Shown one piece after another: positions 25,024 to 64,000 of a DNA stretch of 64,000 nucleotides (position 1 is the stretch's first letter; each line of letters begins with the position of its first letter). The notes beneath the pieces were generated by a model that was given only the letters and a program-made list of their open reading frames with translations, was not told the DNA's origin and ran no database searches. The DNA comes from Candidatus Levybacteria bacterium RIFCSPLOWO2_01_FULL_38_21. GTDB lineage: Bacteria; Patescibacteriota; Microgenomatia; Levybacterales; UBA12049. Location: assembly GCA_001782475.1 (NCBI GenBank), contig MFOT01000024.1, positions 42,578 to 106,577 on the forward strand, in the 5' to 3' direction. A program made the position numbers and the translations under genes.

Positions 25024-26160
25024 CTAATTCTTAAGCTTACCTACTTCTTCCCAGACTCTTGGGTCTTCTCCGCCCAATCTCCAGAAGGCAAGGCCTCCGA
25101 CTCTAAATTCCTTTGCCAAATCAAAACGGGCTGAAGCACTCTCTGAATTTTCGAACCATATTACATACTTTTGTCCACTTTGTAAATACTCAAGGTAAGG
25201 GCTTTTTGAAGGACTGTCCCATTTAGTCTCCGCTCCATTTTCTTGTGCGGTAGATAAAATATCGAAGAACTTAAGGTCGTCACTTATCCCTGCATAAGAT
25301 TTGTCTGATCCGACTCGCCATTTAACCCCATCAAGTCCTATGCCAAGAAAGACCTTCTCAGGCGGCACTCCTACTTCGCCAATTGCGTAACTTAGCACTC
25401 TTCTTATCCACCCAAATTCCCCGATTGAGCCGGGTTCTGAGAATAGTTCGTGCTGGGTATAGGTCATAAAATACATTTGATCTGCCGCTTTAGAAATCCG
25501 TAATAAATCCTGAGCATGTGCACCGTTGTTTTCCTGGGGGTCATTTTCTGAAGTCTTAGGGTGGATAGCAACTCCCAATACTTTCCCCTTTTTATGTAAG
25601 CTTTTCGAAAGTTCCTCAATAAATAGACTAAAGTTTTCCCTTTCTGATACCTTCAATGCTTCATAATCAATATCAATTCCATCTAAATTATTTTCATCTA
25701 CTAGAGTGAGCAAATCATTTATGTGCTTGACTCTTTTCTCTTGAGTTGAGATAACTCTGGCAACCCTGCTATCATCGAAACCCTCTCCTTCTCCATAGTC
25801 TACTAAATTCGCTACAACTGCCAACACTTTTACATTGTGCGCGTGAGCAAAATCTATTATTGATTTGTCGACAATTGTCGATTTATAAGTTCTGAGATTT
25901 CCGCTTGCATCGACTCTGTACCAAAAAAACGAAACAAAATCAAAAGCAGATGTGTTCTTTGAGAAACTCTCAAACGCAGCTTCCTGATCCCAAAAAGGAA
26001 TCCATCCAATAACCTTCGGGTTAAATCTTAAAACTTGCTGGCTTGGCACTTGTTTTTCTTTATAAAATTTATGTCTGTTGTATGACATAGCAATTAATAA
26101 CGCAGTCCAAACTAAAAAAAATACTGCGGAAAATAATAAAAACTTTCTAAATCGCATCAA
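25024..26160 (-). CDS. membrane-anchored glycoside hydrolase family 18 (chitinase-like)
   Basis: LDGIDIDYE matches the GH18 DxxDxDxE catalytic motif; N-terminal TM helix. Confidence 0.6.
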   Translation of the reverse strand: MMRFRKFLLFSAVFFLVWTALLIAMSYNRHKFYKEKQVPSQQVLRFNPKVIGWIPFWDQEAAFESFSKNTSAFDFVSFFWYRVDASGNLRTYKSTIVDKSIIDFAHAHNVKVLAVVANLVDYGEGEGFDDSRVARVISTQEKRVKHINDLLTLVDENNLDGIDIDYEALKVSERENFSLFIEELSKSLHKKGKVLGVAIHPKTSENDPQENNGAHAQDLLRISKAADQMYFMTYTQHELFSEPGSIGEFGWIRRVLSYAIGEVGVPPEKVFLGIGLDGVKWRVGSDKSYAGISDDLKFFDILSTAQENGAETKWDSPSKSPYLEYLQSGQKYVIWFENSESASARFDLAKEFRVGGLAFWRLGGEDPRVWEEVGKLKN

Positions 26161-26797
26161 GTACCCACTTCTTTCCTTTGGTGAATAAATAGTGAATGCT
26201 TGAGTACGGGTACATTGCAGTTAAATTATTATTTACAAACTCATGATTTAAGCCTTGATTTTTTATTTCATTTAATCTTGTCTCATCCAAGTATTCTCTT
26301 GCTCCAACACCGGATAAATATATATCGCCTTTGTATTTCTTACATATGTTTATTAAAAGCTCATGTTTTATTCCCGAAACTTCCTCATCGATCACAACAG
26401 GTGTTTTTATGTTTAAAATGTCTCTGATCGTTAATATCATCTCAGCATTTAAATCTATAAGTCTCTTCCAATTTTTCTTGTAAACCGAAGTGATCTCTGA
26501 AATGTACTCCTTACCTTTGGATTTTCCATAAATCATCTCAAGCGTCTTTATGTGTTTTTTTCTCCAGTCAGCTTGGTTATTTATCAAAACATCCTTAACC
26601 TTTTGATTTTGCGACCCAAAAACCGGCACTGTAAGCCATATATCATTATTGAGTCCTTTTATTTTGTGTCTTTGCTGCCAACCTTCTTGCTTTTCAAATT
26701 GAAGATTACTAATTACGACAAAAAGGTCGGAAAGTCTCATTTTATTAAAGAATGCAAGATTAGGCAGAAAATTTGGCTGGTGAGCTGCTATTTTCAT
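26147..26797 (-). CDS. WbqC-like family protein
   Basis: MKIAAHQPNFLPNLAFFNKM is the characteristic WbqC N-terminus. Confidence 0.65.
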   Translation of the reverse strand: MKIAAHQPNFLPNLAFFNKMRLSDLFVVISNLQFEKQEGWQQRHKIKGLNNDIWLTVPVFGSQNQKVKDVLINNQADWRKKHIKTLEMIYGKSKGKEYISEITSVYKKNWKRLIDLNAEMILTIRDILNIKTPVVIDEEVSGIKHELLINICKKYKGDIYLSGVGAREYLDETRLNEIKNQGLNHEFVNNNLTAMYPYSSIHYLFTKGKKWVLDAI

Positions 26798-27540
26798 AAG
26801 CCGTGCGCGTATCTATGAATAAAAAAACCTTCTGAGAAATCGTTGCCGCTCTGTGTCCCTCGAAGTTTTGCTAAGGTTTTAAGTGCTTCTGGAGAACGTG
26901 GATTTGGGAAGTTTCGAAGCTGAGATCTGTATAACCTTATTGCTTTTGATTTATTCTCAATCTCCTTTTCGTTAAGTGGAATAAAGAAATTCGGTATGAG
27001 CTGTTCTCCGCTATTCCAAAAATCTACCAATTCCTCATATCCCAGAACAATTGACACAAAGTGTTTTACATCTTTTTCCGAAGGACGAAGGCCTGCATGC
27101 GCTGCGTAAGCTGCGACCCGATGATCTTGATTGTACGAGTGGAATGATGGAAAAGCAACGATTGAGGGTCGGACCCTCTCAAGAGAAACAATACCTCCCC
27201 GCTCTATCGTATCCATTATCGGAAGTTGTCCGAGTCTATCGAGCTTTAGATGATATTTATTTCCAGGGAATGCGATGGCGTAATTATCGTATTTTAGAAA
27301 TGCCGCAACTTTTTTTATTTCTTTTTTCCGCTCTGAGGTTTTTGAGACTCCGTTTTTTGAAAAATCTTGGGCATCGCCCAGCGTCAAGAACAAGACATAA
27401 ACTTTCCCGCCTTCTTTTTTAATTTTTTGAATGAGTCCGCCGCACCCAATGACCTCATCATCCGGATGCGGAGCAATTACTAACAATCTCTGCCCTTTAA
27501 AATCCATCATGTAAAAGGGCAGTATCGCATAGGATATCAT
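26794..27540 (-). CDS. PIG-L/LmbE-family N-acetylglucosaminyl deacetylase
   Basis: LVIAPHPDDEVIGCGG (AHPDDE motif). Confidence 0.75.
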   Translation of the reverse strand: MISYAILPFYMMDFKGQRLLVIAPHPDDEVIGCGGLIQKIKKEGGKVYVLFLTLGDAQDFSKNGVSKTSERKKEIKKVAAFLKYDNYAIAFPGNKYHLKLDRLGQLPIMDTIERGGIVSLERVRPSIVAFPSFHSYNQDHRVAAYAAHAGLRPSEKDVKHFVSIVLGYEELVDFWNSGEQLIPNFFIPLNEKEIENKSKAIRLYRSQLRNFPNPRSPEALKTLAKLRGTQSGNDFSEGFFIHRYAHGL

Positions 27541-27582: not shown

Positions 27583-28416
27583 TTATAATTTTTTCGCTAT
27601 CTTGTAGAGTCCGAATAAAACGGCAATAAGAAAAAGAATATTAATGACTATGTTTCCTCCAACTGCCTGATTTACGAAACCTCCGGCATTGGTAATCATT
27701 TTGGTAAATCCCTCAAGATTTTTCATTCCCAGATTGCCGGTTGCATTAAGGTATATAATAATACCTCCCGTTAAAAAGAAGATGATACTTGCTATTAAGT
27801 TACTCATAATTAGCGTTCTTTCCCTGCCAAGAAAGTGAAACTTAAGAACCGGTTTTCTAAGCACCATAAATCTATCCATCTTTCCCGAAAGAAAAACCGA
27901 AATGATAAGAAGAGGTGTTACCATCCCAAGAACATATAATGCGCCGATACCTAATGCGCCGAGAAAATTGGGTGAGAGAAAAGTAAGAGTCAGAATTCCA
28001 ATAAGAACCGGCGCGCAGCAGGCGCTTGTTATTCCGGAAAAAATACCCAAAGTGAAGATCGATAAAACATCTGTTTTCCCCGAAGCTCCTTGAGAAAGAT
28101 GCGGCATGGGAAGTTTAATATCAAGAAATGTTACTAGAGCTGTTGCAAGCATTACTAAACCGCCAATAAAGTAGATCGTATCATGATAGACAAACAAAGC
28201 CTTTGAAAGAAGAGCAACCCCTAGAACTGCAGGCATCATTACTATAAAGATGCCAAAGCCAAATACAAGCGTCATTAAAAGTACTTTTTCTTTTTCCTTA
28301 AATACACCACCAAGATAGGCAGGGAGAAGAAACGTTATGCAGCATGGAGCAAAAAGGGCAACAGTTCCTGCGGCAAATGCCGCGATAAGAGATGTCTGAA
28401 AAAGTGCATTTTCCAT
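27583..28416 (-). CDS. polytopic membrane protein with two vicinal-Cys motifs in TM helices (MerT/DsbD_2-like)
   Basis: FAPCCITFLLPAYLGG and TSACCAPVLIGIL each embed a Cys pair in a hydrophobic helix; about 7 TM segments. Confidence 0.4.
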   Translation of the reverse strand: MENALFQTSLIAAFAAGTVALFAPCCITFLLPAYLGGVFKEKEKVLLMTLVFGFGIFIVMMPAVLGVALLSKALFVYHDTIYFIGGLVMLATALVTFLDIKLPMPHLSQGASGKTDVLSIFTLGIFSGITSACCAPVLIGILTLTFLSPNFLGALGIGALYVLGMVTPLLIISVFLSGKMDRFMVLRKPVLKFHFLGRERTLIMSNLIASIIFFLTGGIIIYLNATGNLGMKNLEGFTKMITNAGGFVNQAVGGNIVINILFLIAVLFGLYKIAKKL

Positions 28417-29364
28417 TTATGCTCCGCACCCTCCCGGAGCAGCGAAACCTGGAATATTCTGTACTTGTTGGTGCACTTTTTGCATACCTTGCAAAGATGA
28501 ATACTCGGCTGCAAGAACTTTTTTTGCGTCAACGGTATTCCATTTTGCCCCTTGCTTATCAAGATATGCTGCAAGCTCAACGTATTGCTGAGGAAACCAG
28601 AATGAATTAAGCGCTAAAACGTCTTTGTATATTTGACGCTCAGACACACCTTGTTTTACCGCAAGCTCAATGTATCCTAAGGCTGCCATGCCGTGATTGC
28701 AGTCCGGAAATGATGTTGGATTACCACAACAAGGTCTATAAATATTCTGCGCTATTTTTTTAACAATTTCCTGTTGCTGTGGCGTTAGCTTAATAATCTC
28801 TTGCGATGAATAGAGTTGGCTGGTGGGTTTTGAGCCCAGATTCCATCCTCCGGTTGAAGCATAAGCCATGGGGTCTTTGTTTCCATACGTTTTCATTGCT
28901 CCCTCCGAAAGAATAGGATTTTTATTCACAAGTCCTAATGCCCATAATGTATTTACCATAAAACGTGAGTTTTTTTCACTAATCATCATGTGGTTACCAG
29001 ATGGATTATTAAGGTATTTCATCTGCTCTTTTGCAAAAGAATCCTGAGCAAACAACTCTGCGTATTTTACCTTATCTATTACGCCTGATGAAATAAGCTG
29101 TTTTCCAATATCGTTCCATTTTACCGAAAGTATATAGCCTTGTTGAGGCACTACCTGCTGCTTTAATATCTGCACAAATTCTTCGGGACTTTTTGTTTTT
29201 TGGTAAAGAGCAGCAATCTGGTTATTGAAGTTTCTTTTCATAAGATAGTATTCAAAAAGACCAACTGCCGCAGATGATTCGATTATCAATATTACTACCA
29301 GGTAAAGAGGGATTGCCTTATTAAGAACTGACTTTAACTTTTTTCTGGTCCTCTTACTTCTCAT
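28417..29364 (-). CDS. membrane-anchored extracytoplasmic protein with a Cys-rich motif
   Basis: N-terminal TM helix; RPCCGNPTSFPDCNHG; C-terminal GGCGA. Confidence 0.35.
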   Translation of the reverse strand: MRSKRTRKKLKSVLNKAIPLYLVVILIIESSAAVGLFEYYLMKRNFNNQIAALYQKTKSPEEFVQILKQQVVPQQGYILSVKWNDIGKQLISSGVIDKVKYAELFAQDSFAKEQMKYLNNPSGNHMMISEKNSRFMVNTLWALGLVNKNPILSEGAMKTYGNKDPMAYASTGGWNLGSKPTSQLYSSQEIIKLTPQQQEIVKKIAQNIYRPCCGNPTSFPDCNHGMAALGYIELAVKQGVSERQIYKDVLALNSFWFPQQYVELAAYLDKQGAKWNTVDAKKVLAAEYSSLQGMQKVHQQVQNIPGFAAPGGCGA

Positions 29365-29365
29365 A

Positions 29366-29866
29366 TTATTTAATAACTGTCCCTGTTAATGTAAAAGTTA
29401 ATTTTGAATTTCTGCTATCATTTGTTTCTATTAGAACAAATCTGTTGATTGGTCCAATTCCCTGCACTCCGTGAAAAGCCGGGTCAAAAATAGCAGTAAG
29501 CTTTGCTTTGTCTCCTGCAGGCACTTCCCCCACCCACGAAGAAATGCTATCCATGCCAAAGTCCGGACTATCCTCTTCGGCAATTGTTACGCGTGCCTTT
29601 GTGCAATGACATGATGTTTTTACATTAAAAACCTTAAGCACCCCGCTTCCTGCGTTTTTGATAGTAAAAGTTTTTGTTACATTTCCGCCGTTTATTGGTA
29701 CGTTGCCCAAGTCAAAGCTTGTTGGTTCTAAGGTATATGCTTTGGCGTCTTTTGAGGCACCTGCTTTCGGCGTATTATTTGTTGTTGAGCCTAGAACGAA
29801 TACACCGCCAAAAATAATAATAACCGTTATAACAATCACTAAGATGATCAACTTTTTTTCATTCAT
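29366..29866 (-). CDS. DUF1573-like membrane-anchored protein (CxC motif)
   Basis: N-terminal TM helix; KTFTIKNAGSGVLKVFNVKTSCHCTKARV resembles the DUF1573 beta-sandwich with a conserved SCgCT. Confidence 0.4.
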   Translation of the reverse strand: MNEKKLIILVIVITVIIIFGGVFVLGSTTNNTPKAGASKDAKAYTLEPTSFDLGNVPINGGNVTKTFTIKNAGSGVLKVFNVKTSCHCTKARVTIAEEDSPDFGMDSISSWVGEVPAGDKAKLTAIFDPAFHGVQGIGPINRFVLIETNDSRNSKLTFTLTGTVIK

Positions 29867-30144
29867 ACACTTTTCCCATTATTTCTAAAGATTCGCATAA
29901 TCTCTTCTACCGATTGCTTGGTCTTTCCGCTTTTTATAAAATCGACAATACATCTTTTTAGGTGGTTTTGCAAAAGAAGATAGTCAACTTCTCTAAGTGC
30001 ACTTTGGACTGCCCGGGATTGGTTGATGATATCGATGCAGTATTGATCTTCCTTGATCATTTTTGTGACTTTCTCAAGATGCCCTCTTGTTATCTTTAAG
30101 CGATGGAGAATTCGTTCTTCTATATTTCTTGGTCTATATGCCAT
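29863..30144 (-). CDS. CsoR/RcnR/FrmR-family metal-sensing transcriptional repressor
   Basis: ILHRLKITRGHLEKVTKMIKEDQYCIDIINQSRAVQSALREVDYLLLQNHLKRC carries the C-H-C metal-ligand pattern; the start is probably the MAYRPRN Met. Confidence 0.65.
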   Translation of the reverse strand: MAYRPRNIEERILHRLKITRGHLEKVTKMIKEDQYCIDIINQSRAVQSALREVDYLLLQNHLKRCIVDFIKSGKTKQSVEEIMRIFRNNGKSV

Positions 30145-30226
30145 ACCTGTGCTGAGTATACCGAAGTATATCCCCCTCCTGGGGATATTATCACAAAAAT
30201 AAAAATACATTGCAAGTAGGAAAAGG

Positions 30227-31558
30227 CTATGTGGGCTGATTGCCGTTGTCACGCTTGTTTCTCCTAATTGCAAGCTCTTGTGCGCCAGTGGTTCTTATTG
30301 CTTTTGGATCTTCATCAAAATATGGACGGAGTTTTTCGGCTCGGGTGGGATCGCGGAGTTTTCCTAAGGCTTGTGCTTCAATTTGACGAATTCTTTCTCG
30401 AACTACATTAAACTCCCGACCAATCTCTTCCAGAGTTCTCCCTCTGCCATCCTCAAGGCCATAACGCAATATAAGAACTTTTTGCTCTTTCGGTGGTAGG
30501 GTTGCTAACGTTTCCATTAATGCTTTTTTACGTTCTGCCTCAAAGCTTTCTTCGTGAACGTCTGGTCCTCTATCTGGTATAAATTCGCCAAACTCGTCTA
30601 CTCCTTCGCCTACTGGTTCATTAAGTGAGACAATTTGTTGTGCTTTAATGGCAGCCAGAAGTACTGCCCCGCCTGCATCAAGCTCATCAGCCATGTCTTC
30701 AAGGCTTGGCTCGTAACCGAGCTCTTGAGCAAGCTGAGCTTTTACCTCCTTATACCGACGGAGCTTCTCTTTGGCGTGGGCAGGTATACGAATTGCTGAT
30801 CCATAATTAGCAATTCCCCTGATAATCGCTTGGCGAATCCACCAGACAGCATAAGTTGAAAATCTATACCTTGGTCGATTATCGTATTTTGCCGCAGCAA
30901 TCATAAGACCAATGTTACCGAAACTAATTAACTCGGGGAGCGATAAGCCCAGTCCTTGATATTTCTTAGCCCAAGAAACAGAAAGTCGCAAATTAGTATT
31001 AACCAAATCATTGTATGATTCAAGACCTTTGTACAGACGGTTAGTCTGCCGATCGATAAATTCCTGGAGAGTCCGTTCTCTTAGCTGGGTAGTCTCAATT
31101 TGCTCAATAGTCTCAAGCCTCTCTCTTACCTGGTCAACGTAACTTTCCGCAATTTTCACTAACTTGTTGTTAAAGTGGTCGAGAAGAAATCGGGCTTGTC
31201 GTGCTTGTAGTGATTGTTTATCTTCAAATAGGAAACTGATCTTTTCTTTCTGGGGTGGTGTTAGCAAGCTCGACTGGACTGTTTCCCTAAGAGCCAGAAG
31301 GGCCAGTTGACCAGCAAAAATTCGGCGAGCGCACCGCCATTGTTCCTCAGTTTCAAGTATCTTGAATTGACCAATCTCTTCTAGATAAAGACTGACCGGA
31401 TTGATATCTTCCCCATCATCCTCCGCATCTGGATGGTAATCAATCGCTCCAACTGCTTCTCCGAGTCGTCCAATTAGTGATTTTGGGCCGCTTAAAGTCT
31501 CGGGGACAATGTCCTTTGTAGGCAAAATATTTCCTCGCTCAACCCCAGCGCTCATCAT
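30227..31558 (-). CDS. rpoD: RNA polymerase sigma-70 factor
   Basis: Region 2 (YAVWWIRQAIIRGI) and region 4 (TLEEIGREFNVVRERIRQIEAQALGKLR). Confidence 0.85.
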   Translation of the reverse strand: MMSAGVERGNILPTKDIVPETLSGPKSLIGRLGEAVGAIDYHPDAEDDGEDINPVSLYLEEIGQFKILETEEQWRCARRIFAGQLALLALRETVQSSLLTPPQKEKISFLFEDKQSLQARQARFLLDHFNNKLVKIAESYVDQVRERLETIEQIETTQLRERTLQEFIDRQTNRLYKGLESYNDLVNTNLRLSVSWAKKYQGLGLSLPELISFGNIGLMIAAAKYDNRPRYRFSTYAVWWIRQAIIRGIANYGSAIRIPAHAKEKLRRYKEVKAQLAQELGYEPSLEDMADELDAGGAVLLAAIKAQQIVSLNEPVGEGVDEFGEFIPDRGPDVHEESFEAERKKALMETLATLPPKEQKVLILRYGLEDGRGRTLEEIGREFNVVRERIRQIEAQALGKLRDPTRAEKLRPYFDEDPKAIRTTGAQELAIRRNKRDNGNQPT

Positions 31559-31645: not shown

Positions 31646-32110
31646 TTACTGAGAGAATTGGGATGCATCAGCAGTATTTTTGTCAAGATCCGCGCCGACT
31701 GCATCGGGATTTGAATTTTCCACTTGCTGCAAGGCATTTAGAACATCCTGTTGGCTTGTGATTGGTTGTTTTGATACTATTTCTTGATTCTGATCGCTCG
31801 GCGTTGGCGTTATAATTTGCTGAGCCTGTGGTGTTGGAACAGCAGGCTTATTGGACTTACCCAGCGTTCTCGAAAATATTATTACGATAAGTATTATAGC
31901 TAGTACTAAAACTGCACCAATGATTAAAAACATTAATTTATTATCGCTCTTGGGCGATTTGCTCTCTTTAGGATCATCTGCTGAAGCTGAATTGTCAGCT
32001 TGTGGTTGGTCAAGCGGTTGAGAAGCCACTTGTTGATTTTCAACTGGTTGAGTGTTTTGTTGCGTACTATCCATTGTATTGTTTACTTGCGTATTATCTT
32101 GATTATCCAT
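31646..32110 (-). CDS. hypothetical Q/N-rich membrane protein
   Basis: Single TM helix LMFLIIGAVLVLAIILIVIIF; low-complexity regions. Confidence 0.3.
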   Translation of the reverse strand: MDNQDNTQVNNTMDSTQQNTQPVENQQVASQPLDQPQADNSASADDPKESKSPKSDNKLMFLIIGAVLVLAIILIVIIFSRTLGKSNKPAVPTPQAQQIITPTPSDQNQEIVSKQPITSQQDVLNALQQVENSNPDAVGADLDKNTADASQFSQ

Positions 32111-32116
32111 ATTATT

Positions 32117-32824
32117 TTATTGTGATAAAGTTGGCAAAGCTGTCGGCTCTATGCTTGGCTGAGTGGCCGACCCAGTAGCATTCCCTTCTCCAGTTCCTCT
32201 TATTGAAGCAACTGCAACAATTAAGTTTCTCACAGACTTTTTATAAGCCTTAAGTCCTGCAATAACTGCGTGCATGTCTTCTTTGAATTGATCCAATTGC
32301 CCTTTAGGATCATTTCCATCGCATTTGAAATTCGCAATATCTGTCTGTATTGCCTGTAAAAGTGGTGCTATTGCGTTTTTATTTGTTTGAATATCCAAAA
32401 CTAAAGCATTATAGTTTGACAAAGTCTTTCCTTGCGGAACCAATCTTGTCAAATAATAGTTTTGAATTCTTGTTGCTATTGAATCAAATACTTCTACCAT
32501 ACGGTTTGCATGGCGGATCATTTGATTTGAGCGATTAACTATATTTTTTTCGCGCAGCCGGCATACACGCAGTTTGGCTTCTTCAAGACGGCCTTTACCA
32601 AATGGAGGCGTACCCGATGGCCTATTGAATGGCAAAGCTCCTCCCGGTGAAGCAGGTTTTCCCCAAACTGTCGTATACGTCTGCTTTTTCAACAAACCCG
32701 GTGGAACATTCTGACCTGATGCTGAATTATCAACCGCAGAGACTTGAGAAGCAAAAACAAGTAATGAAACTGCAAGAATTATCAAAGATATTATAAAAAA
32801 ATGTGAATTTAAAACTTTCCTCAT
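32117..32824 (-). CDS. hypothetical secreted protein
   Basis: N-terminal signal/TM helix FFIISLIILAVSLLVFASQVSA. Confidence 0.3.
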   Translation of the reverse strand: MRKVLNSHFFIISLIILAVSLLVFASQVSAVDNSASGQNVPPGLLKKQTYTTVWGKPASPGGALPFNRPSGTPPFGKGRLEEAKLRVCRLREKNIVNRSNQMIRHANRMVEVFDSIATRIQNYYLTRLVPQGKTLSNYNALVLDIQTNKNAIAPLLQAIQTDIANFKCDGNDPKGQLDQFKEDMHAVIAGLKAYKKSVRNLIVAVASIRGTGEGNATGSATQPSIEPTALPTLSQ

Positions 32825-62445: not shown

Positions 62446-62578
62446 AAATCTTAATAAGACCTATGATCCCAGCAATTATTCCGCCAAAAATAGCTATATT
62501 TTTGAGTTTTTCAGTAAAACTTGGCTGTCCCTCTTTCATAATTTTTAATTCTAAGCTTTGAATTCTAAATTCTATTAG

Positions 62579-62651
62579 AGGCGCGAAGGGGACTTGCACC
62601 CCTGAATGGCTGTTCTGCAGACAGCTGTGTTAGCTACTTCACCACCGCGCC
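62579..62651 (-). tRNA. tRNA-Cys (anticodon GCA)
   Basis: GGCGCGG-TG-GTGAAGTAGCTAACAC-A-GCTGT-CTGCAGA-ACAGC-CATTC-AGGGG-TGCAAGT-CCCCT-TCGCGCC-T. U73 discriminator and G7-U66 are typical of tRNA-Cys; CCA is not encoded. Confidence 0.7.
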
Positions 62652-63283: not shown

Positions 63284-64000
63284 ATTTCGATAACTTGGGT
63301 TGTTTCGAGTTCCCACTAGACAAGCGGTTTTCCCGCATCTAGCGAGCCCCTGTTCATCTGTGATTTTAACTGTCGAATCTTCTTATATCCTTCATTACTT
63401 TTATGTTCTCCATTCTTTACCATTAAAGCGATTCGCCGAAAGAGTAAATAATTTTTAAGCTTTTTGCTATGAAGCTGGTTCTTATCAAAAAAAGGTATTA
63501 TTTTTTCATGTAAATCTTTTTGAGCAGTTACGCCAAATCTGTAACAATTTTTTTGATTTGCACGATATTCCTTTTGATAATATACTCCACCGCAATCAAA
63601 AAACTTCTGAACTTTCTTGAGTAATGGAAGTTCGTCTTCCCGAAGTTTTATGAAAAAGTGCATTTCTACTCGAGATTTATGAGTTCTGTTTGGAACTCTA
63701 GTCGCTACATAAAAACACCCTTCTCCATCAGTTAATCCTACGATATAATCATCAGATAAACGATTAGGTTTTTCCCTTCCCCCGCTAAGCGGGGTACTAT
63801 GGATCTGCTGACTTCTCTTCTTCAAGTTCATCTACCTTGAGAATAGATAAACAATTACCCAATTGTCAAGAAGAGATCTCCTAAGGTCACTTACCAAACA
63901 ATTCCTGGCATCCTAATTAGACTTTTTATATGTTCTTCCCTTAGACACACCTGATTAAGGTCGAACGTCTATTTTTTATTAGGCTGTCATTTGCTTCAGG
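63284..64000 (-). mobile_element. 16S rRNA intron (probably group I) inserted near E. coli position ~1400, continuing beyond the window
   Basis: The expected TGTGTACA following CCGCCCGTCA is replaced by more than 700 nt of non-rRNA sequence that contains a LAGLIDADG ORF. Confidence 0.6.
63316..63831 (-). CDS. LAGLIDADG homing endonuclease encoded within the 16S intron
   Basis: DYIVGLTDGEGCFYV is a single LAGLIDADG motif in a 171-aa protein (homodimer type). Confidence 0.75.
   Translation of the reverse strand: MNLKKRSQQIHSTPLSGGREKPNRLSDDYIVGLTDGEGCFYVATRVPNRTHKSRVEMHFFIKLREDELPLLKKVQKFFDCGGVYYQKEYRANQKNCYRFGVTAQKDLHEKIIPFFDKNQLHSKKLKNYLLFRRIALMVKNGEHKSNEGYKKIRQLKSQMNRGSLDAGKPLV

Follow-up and report, generated by a model that had tools for sequence, protein, structure and literature searches.

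The Scs system of Salmonella, Proteus and Caulobacter (ScsB/ScsC/ScsD with CueP) is a copper-induced envelope thiol system arranged around a DsbD/CcdA-type transporter. The Salmonella system, which is DsbD-like and induced by copper, binds Cu(I) and passes it to CueP, and ScsB, a member of the DsbD family, has Ig-fold Cys domains (PMC10907172). Cytochrome c thio-reduction proceeds from CcdA/DsbD through CcmG/ResA to CcmH. The B. subtilis copZA and M. tuberculosis cso operons are autoregulated by a CsoR repressor at a G/C-tract palindrome that overlaps the promoter, and the Mer relay (MerP, MerT/MerF/MerC) links Cys pairs into a chain that crosses the membrane. The operon described here shares features with each of these. 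It lies in a window of 64 kb from a tiny, uncultured member of the Levybacteria, which is the whole stretch of DNA that was analysed, and consists of the following features.

27583..28416, minus strand: 7-TM CcdA/DsbD_TM-like membrane protein, 277 aa, with vicinal Cys pairs C25-C26 and C133-C134
28417..29364, minus strand: P315, a membrane-anchored protein of 315 aa from an unnamed family, with RPCCGNPTSFPDCNHG and PCCGN...DCNHG...GGCGA
29366..29866, minus strand: DUF1573 protein, 166 aa, membrane-anchored, with an Ig-like (PapD/ASH-type) beta-sandwich and a TSCHCT CxC site
29863..30144, minus strand: csoR, 93 aa, Cu(I)-sensing repressor by signature, with an x-C-H-C site (C36, H61, C65) and second-shell Y35 and E81
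30168..30188, no strand assigned: candidate CsoR-type operator, a perfect inverted repeat ATATCCCC-N5-GGGGATAT
30187..30215, minus strand: promoter-like site in the rpoD-csoR spacer, TTGCAA, 17-nt spacer, TG-extended GATAAT

The four ORFs described in the first-pass annotation were all confirmed on the minus strand at 27583-30144, in the order csoR-DUF1573-P315-ccdA-like. The stop codon of csoR and the start codon of DUF1573 share an ATGA, and the next two spacers measure 1 nt (DUF1573/P315) and 0 nt (P315/7-TM). The rpoD gene (30227-31558) lies directly upstream of csoR across an 82-nt spacer, as had been noted, but this adjacency occurs in 1 of 80 related loci, and a functional link to rpoD was therefore rejected. 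The downstream PIG-L/BshB-like, WbqC and GH18 genes were likewise rejected as members of the module (PIG-L, 0 of 80 loci). No terminator was found in the 42-nt gap 3' of the operon, so transcription may read through into these downstream genes.

The regulator belongs to the CsoR family, as the first-pass annotation had proposed. It matches PF02583 (Trns_repr_metal) at E 7e-22 (78 bits, cutoff 22.8), and in the PDB it matches Geobacillus CsoR (4m1p) at E 7e-16 and M. tuberculosis CsoR (2hh7) at E 9.3e-15; residues 11-84 align to residues 11-84 of the latter in residue-for-residue register. The mechanically called ORF reaches upstream to a TTG at 30273. Because csoR homologues are 86-95 aa long and the ATG at 30144 gives the register of the M. 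tuberculosis protein, the start was set at that ATG. Judged by the Cu(I)-sensor signature criteria of PMC8643695, the ligand set is complete, with Cys36, His61 and Cys65 at the X-Y-Z positions, Tyr35 and Glu81 in the second shell and no N-terminal W ligand. By this signature the protein is a genuine CsoR-type Cu(I) sensor; nothing points to mercury, which the earlier reading had also considered. In the closest relative, L001, csoR has lost its 5' half, which counts against the mechanism proposed below.

The promoter-like site scores 9 of 12 consensus matches plus the TG in a consensus scan and would act as the promoter of the operon. Operators of the CsoR family are pseudo-palindromic, with G/C tracts of four or more nucleotides, and lie at the regulated promoter (PMC10318464). 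A search upstream of 30144 for an operator-like inverted repeat, which the first-pass annotation had suggested as a check, identified one at 30168-30188. The predicted operator is a pseudo-palindrome with such G/C runs; its arms, 8 nt each, are 100% complementary. Placed 24 nt ahead of the csoR ATG, the box adjoins and overlaps the -10 element, and no second site of this kind occurs in the 64-kb window. Supporting the suggested co-transcription of csoR with the three Cys-rich envelope genes are the overlapping or abutting genes and the operator box at the promoter. The CsoR signature, the palindrome overlapping the promoter and the predicted autoregulation liken the operon to copZA and cso, and in relatives CopA and CopZ-like genes occur in the same locus, as in canonical CsoR operons. 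The regulon in the window, in contrast, consists of three Cys-rich envelope proteins only; CopA, CopZ, HMA and cupredoxin genes were not found within the 64 kb. The window thus holds no CopA, HMA or cupredoxin gene as a source of surface Cu(I), another point against the mechanism proposed below.

Seven hydrophobic segments were predicted in the 7-TM protein, which has no soluble domains, and one N-terminal TM segment was predicted in each of DUF1573 and P315. The 7-TM sequence alone matches CcdA (5vkv) at E 1.3e-6 in phmmer, and the family profile does so at E 8.5e-15. PF02683 is matched by 7 of 16 family members (best E 9.5e-13). The window protein itself gave no PF02683 match above the Pfam threshold and is consequently taken as a divergent CcdA/DsbD_TM member; its position below the Pfam DsbD_TM threshold also weighs against the proposed mechanism. 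The CcdA/DsbD_TM arrangement of one Cys each in TM1 and TM4, after Pro or a small residue and in an inverted repeat, is present here. The Cys pairs are C25-C26 in TM1 (FAPCCITF, APCC) and C133-C134 in TM4 (TSACCAPV, CCAP). The first Cys of each pair (C25, C133) aligns with the CcdA catalytic Cys, whereas the extra neighbouring Cys (C26, C134) is not a feature of the CcdA/DsbD_TM family. All 59 homologues from the 80 related loci keep both pairs, at identities down to 37%.

The resemblance to MerT/MerF-type transporters seen in the first-pass annotation did not extend to homology. No Mer family appeared among the Pfam matches of the window 7-TM protein (E up to 10) or of 16 family members (E up to 1), and none of merR, merP and merA was recognised either in the 30 neighbour families that recur most often in the 80 loci or in the ORFs scanned nearby. 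MerT/MerF homology was rejected on this basis in favour of homology to CcdA; by sequence, the 7-TM protein belongs with CcdA/DsbD as a divergent homologue and not with MerT. In MerT and MerF, vicinal Cys pairs inside TM helices are followed by Pro in CC-x-x-P motifs, and the protein described here has CCAP where Mer has CCxxP. Because no MerT/MerF homology was detected, the resemblance is limited to short CC-x-P motifs: a Cys-pair chain across the membrane is common to both systems, but the operon differs in its CcdA-like fold and in its lack of sequence homology and of a merR/merA/merP context. A CcdA/DsbD protein, a separately transcribed csoR and a missing operator had been named in advance as findings that would speak against a metal-handling operon; the first was obtained, but the genes are packed together and the box is present.

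The DUF1573 protein matches PF07610 at E 1.3e-12 (48 bits against a gathering cutoff of 26.1). TSCxCT is invariant in 78 of 78 DUF1573 copies, and 40 of them have Met or His between the two Cys of the CxC. Thus, the CxC part of the SCHCT motif pointed out earlier is conserved but its His is not, and this His was rejected as a conserved ligand. Close orthologues all share FGM (M105) and FDPxxHG (H132). DUF1573 also exists as a selenoprotein, with UGC at the CxC site (PMC9312934, PMC13188914). In other loci a CcmH domain is fused to DUF1573, and rhodanese domains are fused to some paralogues. Structural closeness of DUF1573 to DsbD-alpha was looked for and the two were not close, a distance that likewise counts against the proposed mechanism.

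P315 matched no Pfam family; 4431 homologues were detected, which form 576 clusters at 50% identity. Its Cys/His site reads R-P-C212-C213-G-N...D-C222-N-H224, and the C-terminal tail bears Cys313 (GGCGA). Among 47 diverse relatives (~30-40% identity), C212, C213, D221 and C222 never vary, and conservation of H224 and C313 is 90% or higher. The invariance among homologues shows that the Cys motifs of the three envelope proteins are not due to chance. Residues ~205-249 are probably a remote CcmH-like segment, for which the hallmark used in comparison was a three-helix bundle with the motif R-C-P-x-C-Q-N...D-S-N-A. P315 aligned with an E. coli CcmH fragment at E 0.33; PF03918 (CcmH) was not matched in the 47 relatives at E up to 1, nor was CcmH matched by the P315 profile in the PDB. 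The His of the P315 DCNH corresponds to a Cys in the ECTC of the CcmH-like fusion domain, and fusions to HMA, cupredoxin or rhodanese domains occur in some relatives of P315. A profile match to All4940/CTDH (E 0.08) was weak and was treated as noise.

At least 598 species genomes, most of them from Patescibacteria, carry the conserved module, with 60-80% identity across Microgenomates. Neighbourhoods were counted over 80 sampled species loci, of which 51 have all three core genes. In 40 loci CsoR is no more than 3 kb from P315, in 40 a CopA P-type ATPase is no more than 3 kb from the module, and 59 loci have a regulator of the CsoR, ArsR-YHS, response-regulator or BlaI type. Cupredoxin_1, DsbD_2-Cupredoxin_1 and HMA proteins are also found among the neighbours. 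The link to metals that the first-pass annotation had drawn from one locus therefore recurs in many genomes; its remark that the gene order does not match classical cop operons is true locally, but not of relatives with CopA, HMA or cupredoxin genes nearby. No description of the module was found in the literature on DUF5676, on CsoR in the candidate phyla radiation or on CcdA with CsoR. Since it recurs in hundreds of related species, often beside CopA, the module probably serves copper defence as an accessory part that has not been described before. Patescibacteria genomes are very small, yet the module is kept in all these species, and its retention at such identity makes it look core to copper coping in the group.

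In 7 loci, a TM-anchored AhpC-TSA/Redoxin protein with CxxC stands beside the 7-TM gene instead of DUF1573, and csoR precedes in 4 of the 7. Together with the CcdA homologue and the probable CcmH-like segment of P315, this CcmG/ResA-type redoxin completes the triad of cytochrome c thio-reduction, and its adjacency indirectly supports the analogy by which the 7-TM protein would transfer electrons from thioredoxin to extracytoplasmic thiol oxidoreductases. The module differs from the cytochrome c pathway in adjoining copper regulators and CopA, in having CC, CxC and CC...C-x-H where CxxC is expected, and in its surroundings: the 30 neighbour families met most often in the 80 loci include none identified as heme-handling, ResB/ResC/Ccs or cytochrome c.

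We lean, with some reserve, towards a copper-inducible operon whose three envelope proteins form an extracytoplasmic thiol relay of cytochrome-c-maturation-type parts, comparable to Scs. From the gene organisation, the sensor signature, the conserved operator, the homologies, the motif invariance and the linkage to cop genes and metal regulators, we infer copper induction, Cu(I) binding, the direction in which electrons flow and the sequence of relay steps, as follows. At low copper, CsoR would sit on the ATATCCCC-N5-GGGGATAT box and repress its own operon; as cytoplasmic Cu(I) rises, its binding to C36/H61/C65 would release CsoR from the DNA. The 7-TM CcdA homologue would then move reducing equivalents, presumably from cytoplasmic thioredoxin, over the membrane via its TM1 and TM4 cysteines and hand them to the membrane-tethered CxC domain of DUF1573, which would fill the slot taken in some relatives by the CcmG/ResA-type redoxin. 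From DUF1573 the equivalents would go on to P315, to its CcmH-like Cys/His site and its tail Cys. Once reduced, the thiolates, together with His and Met, could bind Cu(I) at the cell surface, for instance Cu(I) expelled by CopA; alternatively or in addition, the relay could reverse copper-catalysed mis-oxidation of surface thiols.

The likeness of this relay to Scs would be functional, by analogy. The ScsB architecture of 8 TM segments with an Ig-like alpha and a thioredoxin-like gamma domain was not found: the transporter of the module is CcdA-like, consists of its seven TM segments only, bears CC pairs and has neither an alpha nor a gamma domain fused to it. Its partners are DUF1573 (CxC, PapD-like) and a CcmH-like protein, in contrast to the thioredoxin-fold ScsC/ScsD, and the window operon has no thioredoxin-fold gene. 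The regulator is a cytoplasmic CsoR, whereas that of Scs is CpxR, and the organisms with the module, unlike the Scs hosts, have no outer-membrane-bounded periplasm. One testable function would thereby join three pieces about which little is understood: DUF1573, the unnamed P315 family and a CcdA subfamily with paired cysteines.

Motifs of the CC and CxC type are poor formers of intramolecular disulfides and typical Cu(I)/Hg(II) ligands, which argues against an electron relay, and their replacement of CxxC everywhere favours a different, still tentative reading in which the relay carries metal. The scaffold of CcdA, CcmG-like/DUF1573 and CcmH-like parts would have been rebuilt in Patescibacteria as a Cu(I) relay, redox Cys and CxxC giving way to CC/CxC ligand pairs and the CcdA fold becoming a conduit for thiophilic metal. 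The four membrane cysteines (CC in TM1, CC in TM4) would form an alternately exposed Cu(I) site, and Cu(I) would move by ligand exchange among the 7-TM protein, the DUF1573 CxC and the CC/C/H/tail-Cys of P315, as Hg(II) does along MerP-MerT/MerF-MerA, under CsoR control and in the direction of export or surface sequestration. Such a role would explain the invariance of an extra Cys beside each catalytic Cys where CcdA requires one per half, and it is in line with CC or CxC in all partners, with Met or His so often inside the CxC and Met105 and His132 nearby, with the Cys-to-His exchange in DCNH, a ligand-type swap, with the HMA or cupredoxin fusions of P315 relatives and with the lack of CopA in the window. 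CopG, a thioredoxin-fold protein, is a CxCC Cu-cluster protein. The CcdA catalytic Cys positions are kept, however, no homology to MerT, MerF or MerC was detected, no energy coupling is evident, CopA already stands beside the module in half of the loci, and the CxxC redoxin that replaces DUF1573 fits electron transfer better. If metal is nevertheless what is relayed, the 7-TM CcdA-fold protein would be an unrecognised class of Cu(I) translocator with a membrane tetrathiolate site, passing Cu(I) to DUF1573 and P315; this would amount to a 'Mer-like' system for copper and to a first assigned function for the large DUF1573 family. The disulfide-relay scaffold described here suggests that such scaffolds can be re-used for soft-metal handling.

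It is improbable that the module serves maturation and not defence, either by reducing or metallating the Cys copper sites of exported cuproproteins (cf. TlpA/Sco/PcuC), with cupredoxins and CuA-type domains as clients, or as a branch of cytochrome c thio-reduction. The CcdA-like and CcmH-like parts would suit this role, as would the Cupredoxin_1 and DsbD_2-Cupredoxin_1 genes of many loci and the high-GC locus L081, where a P315 fusion adjoins COX2/cupredoxin and cytochrome c genes. CsoR, however, sets the operon to copper excess and not to copper need, the window has no cupredoxin homologue, the commonest neighbour families include none identified as heme-handling or cytochrome c, and Patescibacteria generally have no respiratory chains.

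A sulfur reading, with a CstR-like regulator that senses persulfides and a module that moves sulfane sulfur or persulfides at the surface, is very unlikely, despite the rhodanese fusions of DUF1573 paralogues and some P315 relatives, the weak match of the 7-TM protein to the rhodanese/DsbD fusion TsoB (E 0.006) and the control of Thermus sox genes by a CsoR-family regulator (PMC10318464), since CstR sensors are x-C-x-C without the Y-position His where H61 is present here with Y35 and E81, the neighbours are CopA, HMA and cupredoxin genes and not sqr, cstA/B or tauE, and rhodanese is absent from the window and the main orthologues.

The predicted operator is itself conserved. By a strict pattern, 22 of 43 loci have a homologous box upstream of csoR, and most of the others have close variants, which makes the box usable for regulon prediction in uncultured bacteria. 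In L023 and L025, where csoR is last in the operon, the box lies between the -35 and -10 elements ahead of the DUF1573 gene.

Four minus-strand genes directly downstream of rpoD form an operon encoding a CsoR regulator, a DUF1573 protein, P315 (a 315-aa membrane-anchored protein of an unnamed family) and a seven-transmembrane (7-TM) protein:

Genes of the operon and its upstream neighbour
30227-31558, minus strand: rpoD, directly upstream of the four-gene operon
29863-30144, minus strand: csoR, 93 aa counted from the ATG
29366-29866, minus strand: DUF1573 gene, start ATG overlapping the csoR stop (ATGA)
28417-29364, minus strand: P315 gene, 315 aa, 1-nt gap from the DUF1573 gene
27583-28416, minus strand: 7-TM gene, 277 aa, 0-nt gap from the P315 gene

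The coordinates and quoted motifs of the first-pass annotation were all correct in an ORF check on the minus strand. Hydropathy analysis gave one N-terminal TM segment each for the DUF1573 protein and P315, and seven for the last protein. The genome is that of a Candidatus Levybacteria member (Patescibacteria), and the 7-TM and DUF1573 proteins show 100% identity to proteins of 'Candidatus Levybacteria bacterium RIFCSPLOWO2_01_FULL_38...'. The 64 kb window contains no accessory copper genes; its operon is the minimal four-gene form of a module carried by other genomes.

The regulator matched PF02583 in a Pfam search (E 7e-22). Its residues 11-84 aligned position by position with residues 11-84 of M. 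tuberculosis CsoR, and Geobacillus CsoR was also aligned. It carries Y35, C36, H61, C65 and E81, corresponding to the x-C-H-C Cu(I) site and the two second-shell residues (Y35 and E81) linking Cu(I) binding to release from DNA; CstR persulfide sensors lack the His of this site (PMC8643695). The 82-nt spacer after rpoD contains a promoter-like TTGCAA-17-TGtGATAAT, identified by consensus match. A search for a CsoR operator upstream of csoR, suggested by the first-pass annotation, located a perfect inverted repeat at this promoter, ATATCCCC-N5-GGGGATAT (30168-30188), which abuts and overlaps the -10 element. Operators of the CsoR family are pseudo-palindromes with G/C tracts that overlap promoters (PMC10318464), and this box, occurring once in the 64 kb window, is a candidate CsoR operator. 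Of 43 related loci, 22 had the strict pattern upstream of csoR, and most of the remainder had close variants such as ATACCCTAGGGGGGTAT. At two loci from other genomes, L023 and L025, csoR is the last operon gene and the box lies between TTGACA and TATAAT directly 5' of the DUF1573 gene, so that the structural genes are predicted to be direct CsoR targets. We regard as secure the prediction that the operon is CsoR-controlled and hence copper-responsive, and likewise the functional assignment of its three envelope proteins to copper homeostasis. The original idea of a Cu/Hg-type metal operon was largely right for copper.

In the closest relative, Levybacteria RIFCSPHIGHO2_01_FULL_37_33 (L001:3680-3826), the operator ATATCCCCGATAGGGGGATAG is retained, approximately the first 52 csoR codons are deleted, the remaining 3' half runs directly into the DUF1573 start, and rpoD is missing at this position; following the csoR 5' loss, the module is probably constitutive in that genome. 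CsoR of loci L002, L012, L041, L043, L053, L059 and L062 has His for the second Cys (x-C-H-H, the Thermus-type copper sensor pattern), and the operators of x-C-H-H csoR loci are ATACCC...GGGTAT variants. Two x-C-H-H homologues start with MKHH or MKSH, which could provide an RcnR-like N-terminal ligand.

A Pfam search with the 7-TM protein alone gave no match. Phmmer aligned it with Thermus CcdA (5vkv) at E 1.3e-6, a profile of 16 family members matched 5vkv at E 8.5e-15, and 7 of the 16 matched PF02683 (DsbD_TM; best 9.5e-13). C25 in TM1 and C133 in TM4 align with the two catalytic CcdA cysteines; C26 and C134 are additional relative to CcdA. All 59 homologues adjoining P315 genes, at identities down to 37%, keep LFAPCC and CCAPVL unchanged. 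The MerT/MerF analogy first drawn for this protein comes down to motif resemblance: Mer-family homology was not detected, and the homology is to CcdA.

The DUF1573 protein matched PF07610 (1.3e-12). In its AF2 model (pLDDT 88) it folds as a PapD/ASH-type beta-sandwich, and a hairpin carries the CxC. All 78 copies have TSCxCT, with different residues in the middle position (M in 29, G in 13, H in 11, A in 11 and T in 10); FGM and FDPxxHG are further motifs kept by close orthologues. A marine selenoprotein form has UGC at the CxC site (PMC9312934, PMC13188914), arguing that the CxC is a chemically active site. DUF1573 is missing from seven loci (L039, L041, L053, L054, L066, L073 and L077), where an AhpC-TSA/Redoxin gene adjoins the 7-TM gene. 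The redoxin, membrane-anchored with CYPAC and a conserved SSMHxGxxPGH stretch (e.g. L054:6604-7194), looks like a non-orthologous replacement of DUF1573; these loci hold a triad of CcdA, CcmG-like and CcmH-like proteins, with csoR ahead of it at four of them.

Other lineages (L063:4080-6179, L057, L061, L075, L036 and L028) have three or four consecutive DUF1573 paralogues, often behind a two-component regulator. One paralogue of these arrays carries a fused CcmH-like CPCC...PCCG domain, another a fused rhodanese domain (CRSG loop), and a further copy an N-terminal cytoplasmic HDCC tail.

P315 had no match in Pfam, NCBIfam or PDB sequences; clustering its 4431 homologues at 50% identity gave 576 clusters. 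Across 47 diverse relatives there is little or no variation at R210-P-C212-C213, D221-C222-N-H224 and a C-terminal tail Cys (GGCGA). The AF2 model (pLDDT 77) is mostly helical, with lower confidence in the Cys loop and C222 at a helix N-terminus. At other loci DUF1573 carries a fused domain that matches CcmH structures at 2e-5, and hhalign aligned P315 residues 205-249 with this domain (E 1.2e-6 and 7.8e-6), pairing RPCCGN...DCNHGMAA of P315 with RCPCCEN...ECTCPLAA. Direct comparison with an E. coli CcmH fragment was not significant and gave the same register. Judged from these alignments, P315 probably contains a remote CcmH-like segment, in which CxxC probably became PCC and a Cys/His pair replaced the Ser/Ala of the CcmH D-S-N-A. 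Fusions to HMA, cupredoxin or rhodanese domains are rare among P315 relatives; in others the fusion partner is a 4-TM domain with GCPxCG in the membrane.

That 4-TM domain, which belongs to no Pfam family and has a second pair, CDVC, is fused N-terminally to P315 on a high-GC, non-Patescibacteria contig (L081:410-7189) and in proteins P0261, P0264, P0266 and P0334. Downstream at L081 lie genes for CcmH-DUF1573, two more DUF1573 proteins, a PCYCGC-family protein, COX2/cupredoxin proteins and a cytochrome c. A free-standing 4-TM protein accompanies P315 at L033 and L035.

We lean towards a copper-induced reductive cysteine relay as the most likely mechanism. The CcdA-like 7-TM protein would move reducing power outward, DUF1573 would act as the CcmG-type partner and P315 as the CcmH-like end, and the reduced thiolates would bind Cu(I) or repair surface thiols oxidised by copper. 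In Salmonella the analogous Cu-induced ScsB/ScsC/ScsD system works in this way with CueP (PMC10907172). The main rival, which we hold as a tentative possibility, is that Cu(I) itself passes along the chain: CC or CxC, classic soft-metal ligands, stand in place of each canonical redox motif; the 7-TM protein has four invariant cysteines, twice the number CcdA requires; and Cys and His ligands are swapped between P315 and its CcmH-like relatives. Relay and Cu(I) transfer are compatible, because ScsB and ScsC both reduce and bind copper. Maturation of a cuproprotein or cytochrome appears unlikely, and sulfur trafficking very improbable.

With one genome scanned per species, the P315 gene was found in at least 598 genomes, most of them named Patescibacteria (Levy-, Davies-, Curtiss-, Roizman-, Woese-, Beckwith- and Amesbacteria, WWE3 and Parcubacteria). 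Most loci under other names have a G+C of 35-45%, some with the same gene order, which fits Patescibacteria; L078 and L081-L083 are among a few high-GC outsiders. Among the 80 best loci, DUF1573 lies within 1.5 kb of P315 in 63 and the 7-TM gene in 56, all three core genes being together in 51. CsoR is within 3 kb of P315 in 40/80, and a CsoR, ArsR-YHS, response-regulator or BlaI-type regulator is present in 59; rpoD occurs once and a PIG-L gene at none. A CopA-type ATPase (DKTGT and HMA) within 3 kb of P315 in 40 of the 80 qualifies the first-pass view of an operon apart from cop operons, which holds in the window but not elsewhere. DUF5676, Cupredoxin_1, DsbD_2-Cupredoxin_1 and CopZ-like HMA proteins are further recurrent neighbours. 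No description of the csoR-DUF1573-P315-7-TM module was found in the literature searched, and its parts appear at NCBI as 'CcdA', 'DUF1573 domain-containing' and 'hypothetical'. We place the module as a new variant among the known copper-responsive envelope thiol systems and accessories of cop operons, not in a new category.

A recurrent gene pair adjoins the module at L020:5599-6033, L041:8055-8528 and L064:6748-7618, encoding a small membrane protein with ACCVHH (no Pfam family) and a ~140-aa exported protein with GGHH and a weak DUF5643 match; these may be further copper-handling parts.

Read-through from the operon could reach three downstream genes in the window, the first following after 42 nt without a predicted terminator; in other genomes none of the three shows linkage to the module. 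These and other features of the window are:

Further features of the window
26794-27540, minus strand: PIG-L/BshB-like deacetylase
26147-26797, minus strand: WbqC-like protein
25024-26160, minus strand: GH18 protein
31646-32824, minus strand: two low-complexity exported/anchored proteins of 154 and 235 aa that belong to no family, located between cysS and rpoD and both kept in L001
61585-61657, minus strand: tRNA-Ile(GAT), found by Rfam at the gathering threshold
62578-62651, minus strand: tRNA-Cys(GCA), not found by Rfam at that threshold
63773-63851, minus strand, near the window end: Rfam group II intron D1-D4 (RF01998), 38.2 bits against a gathering score of 35
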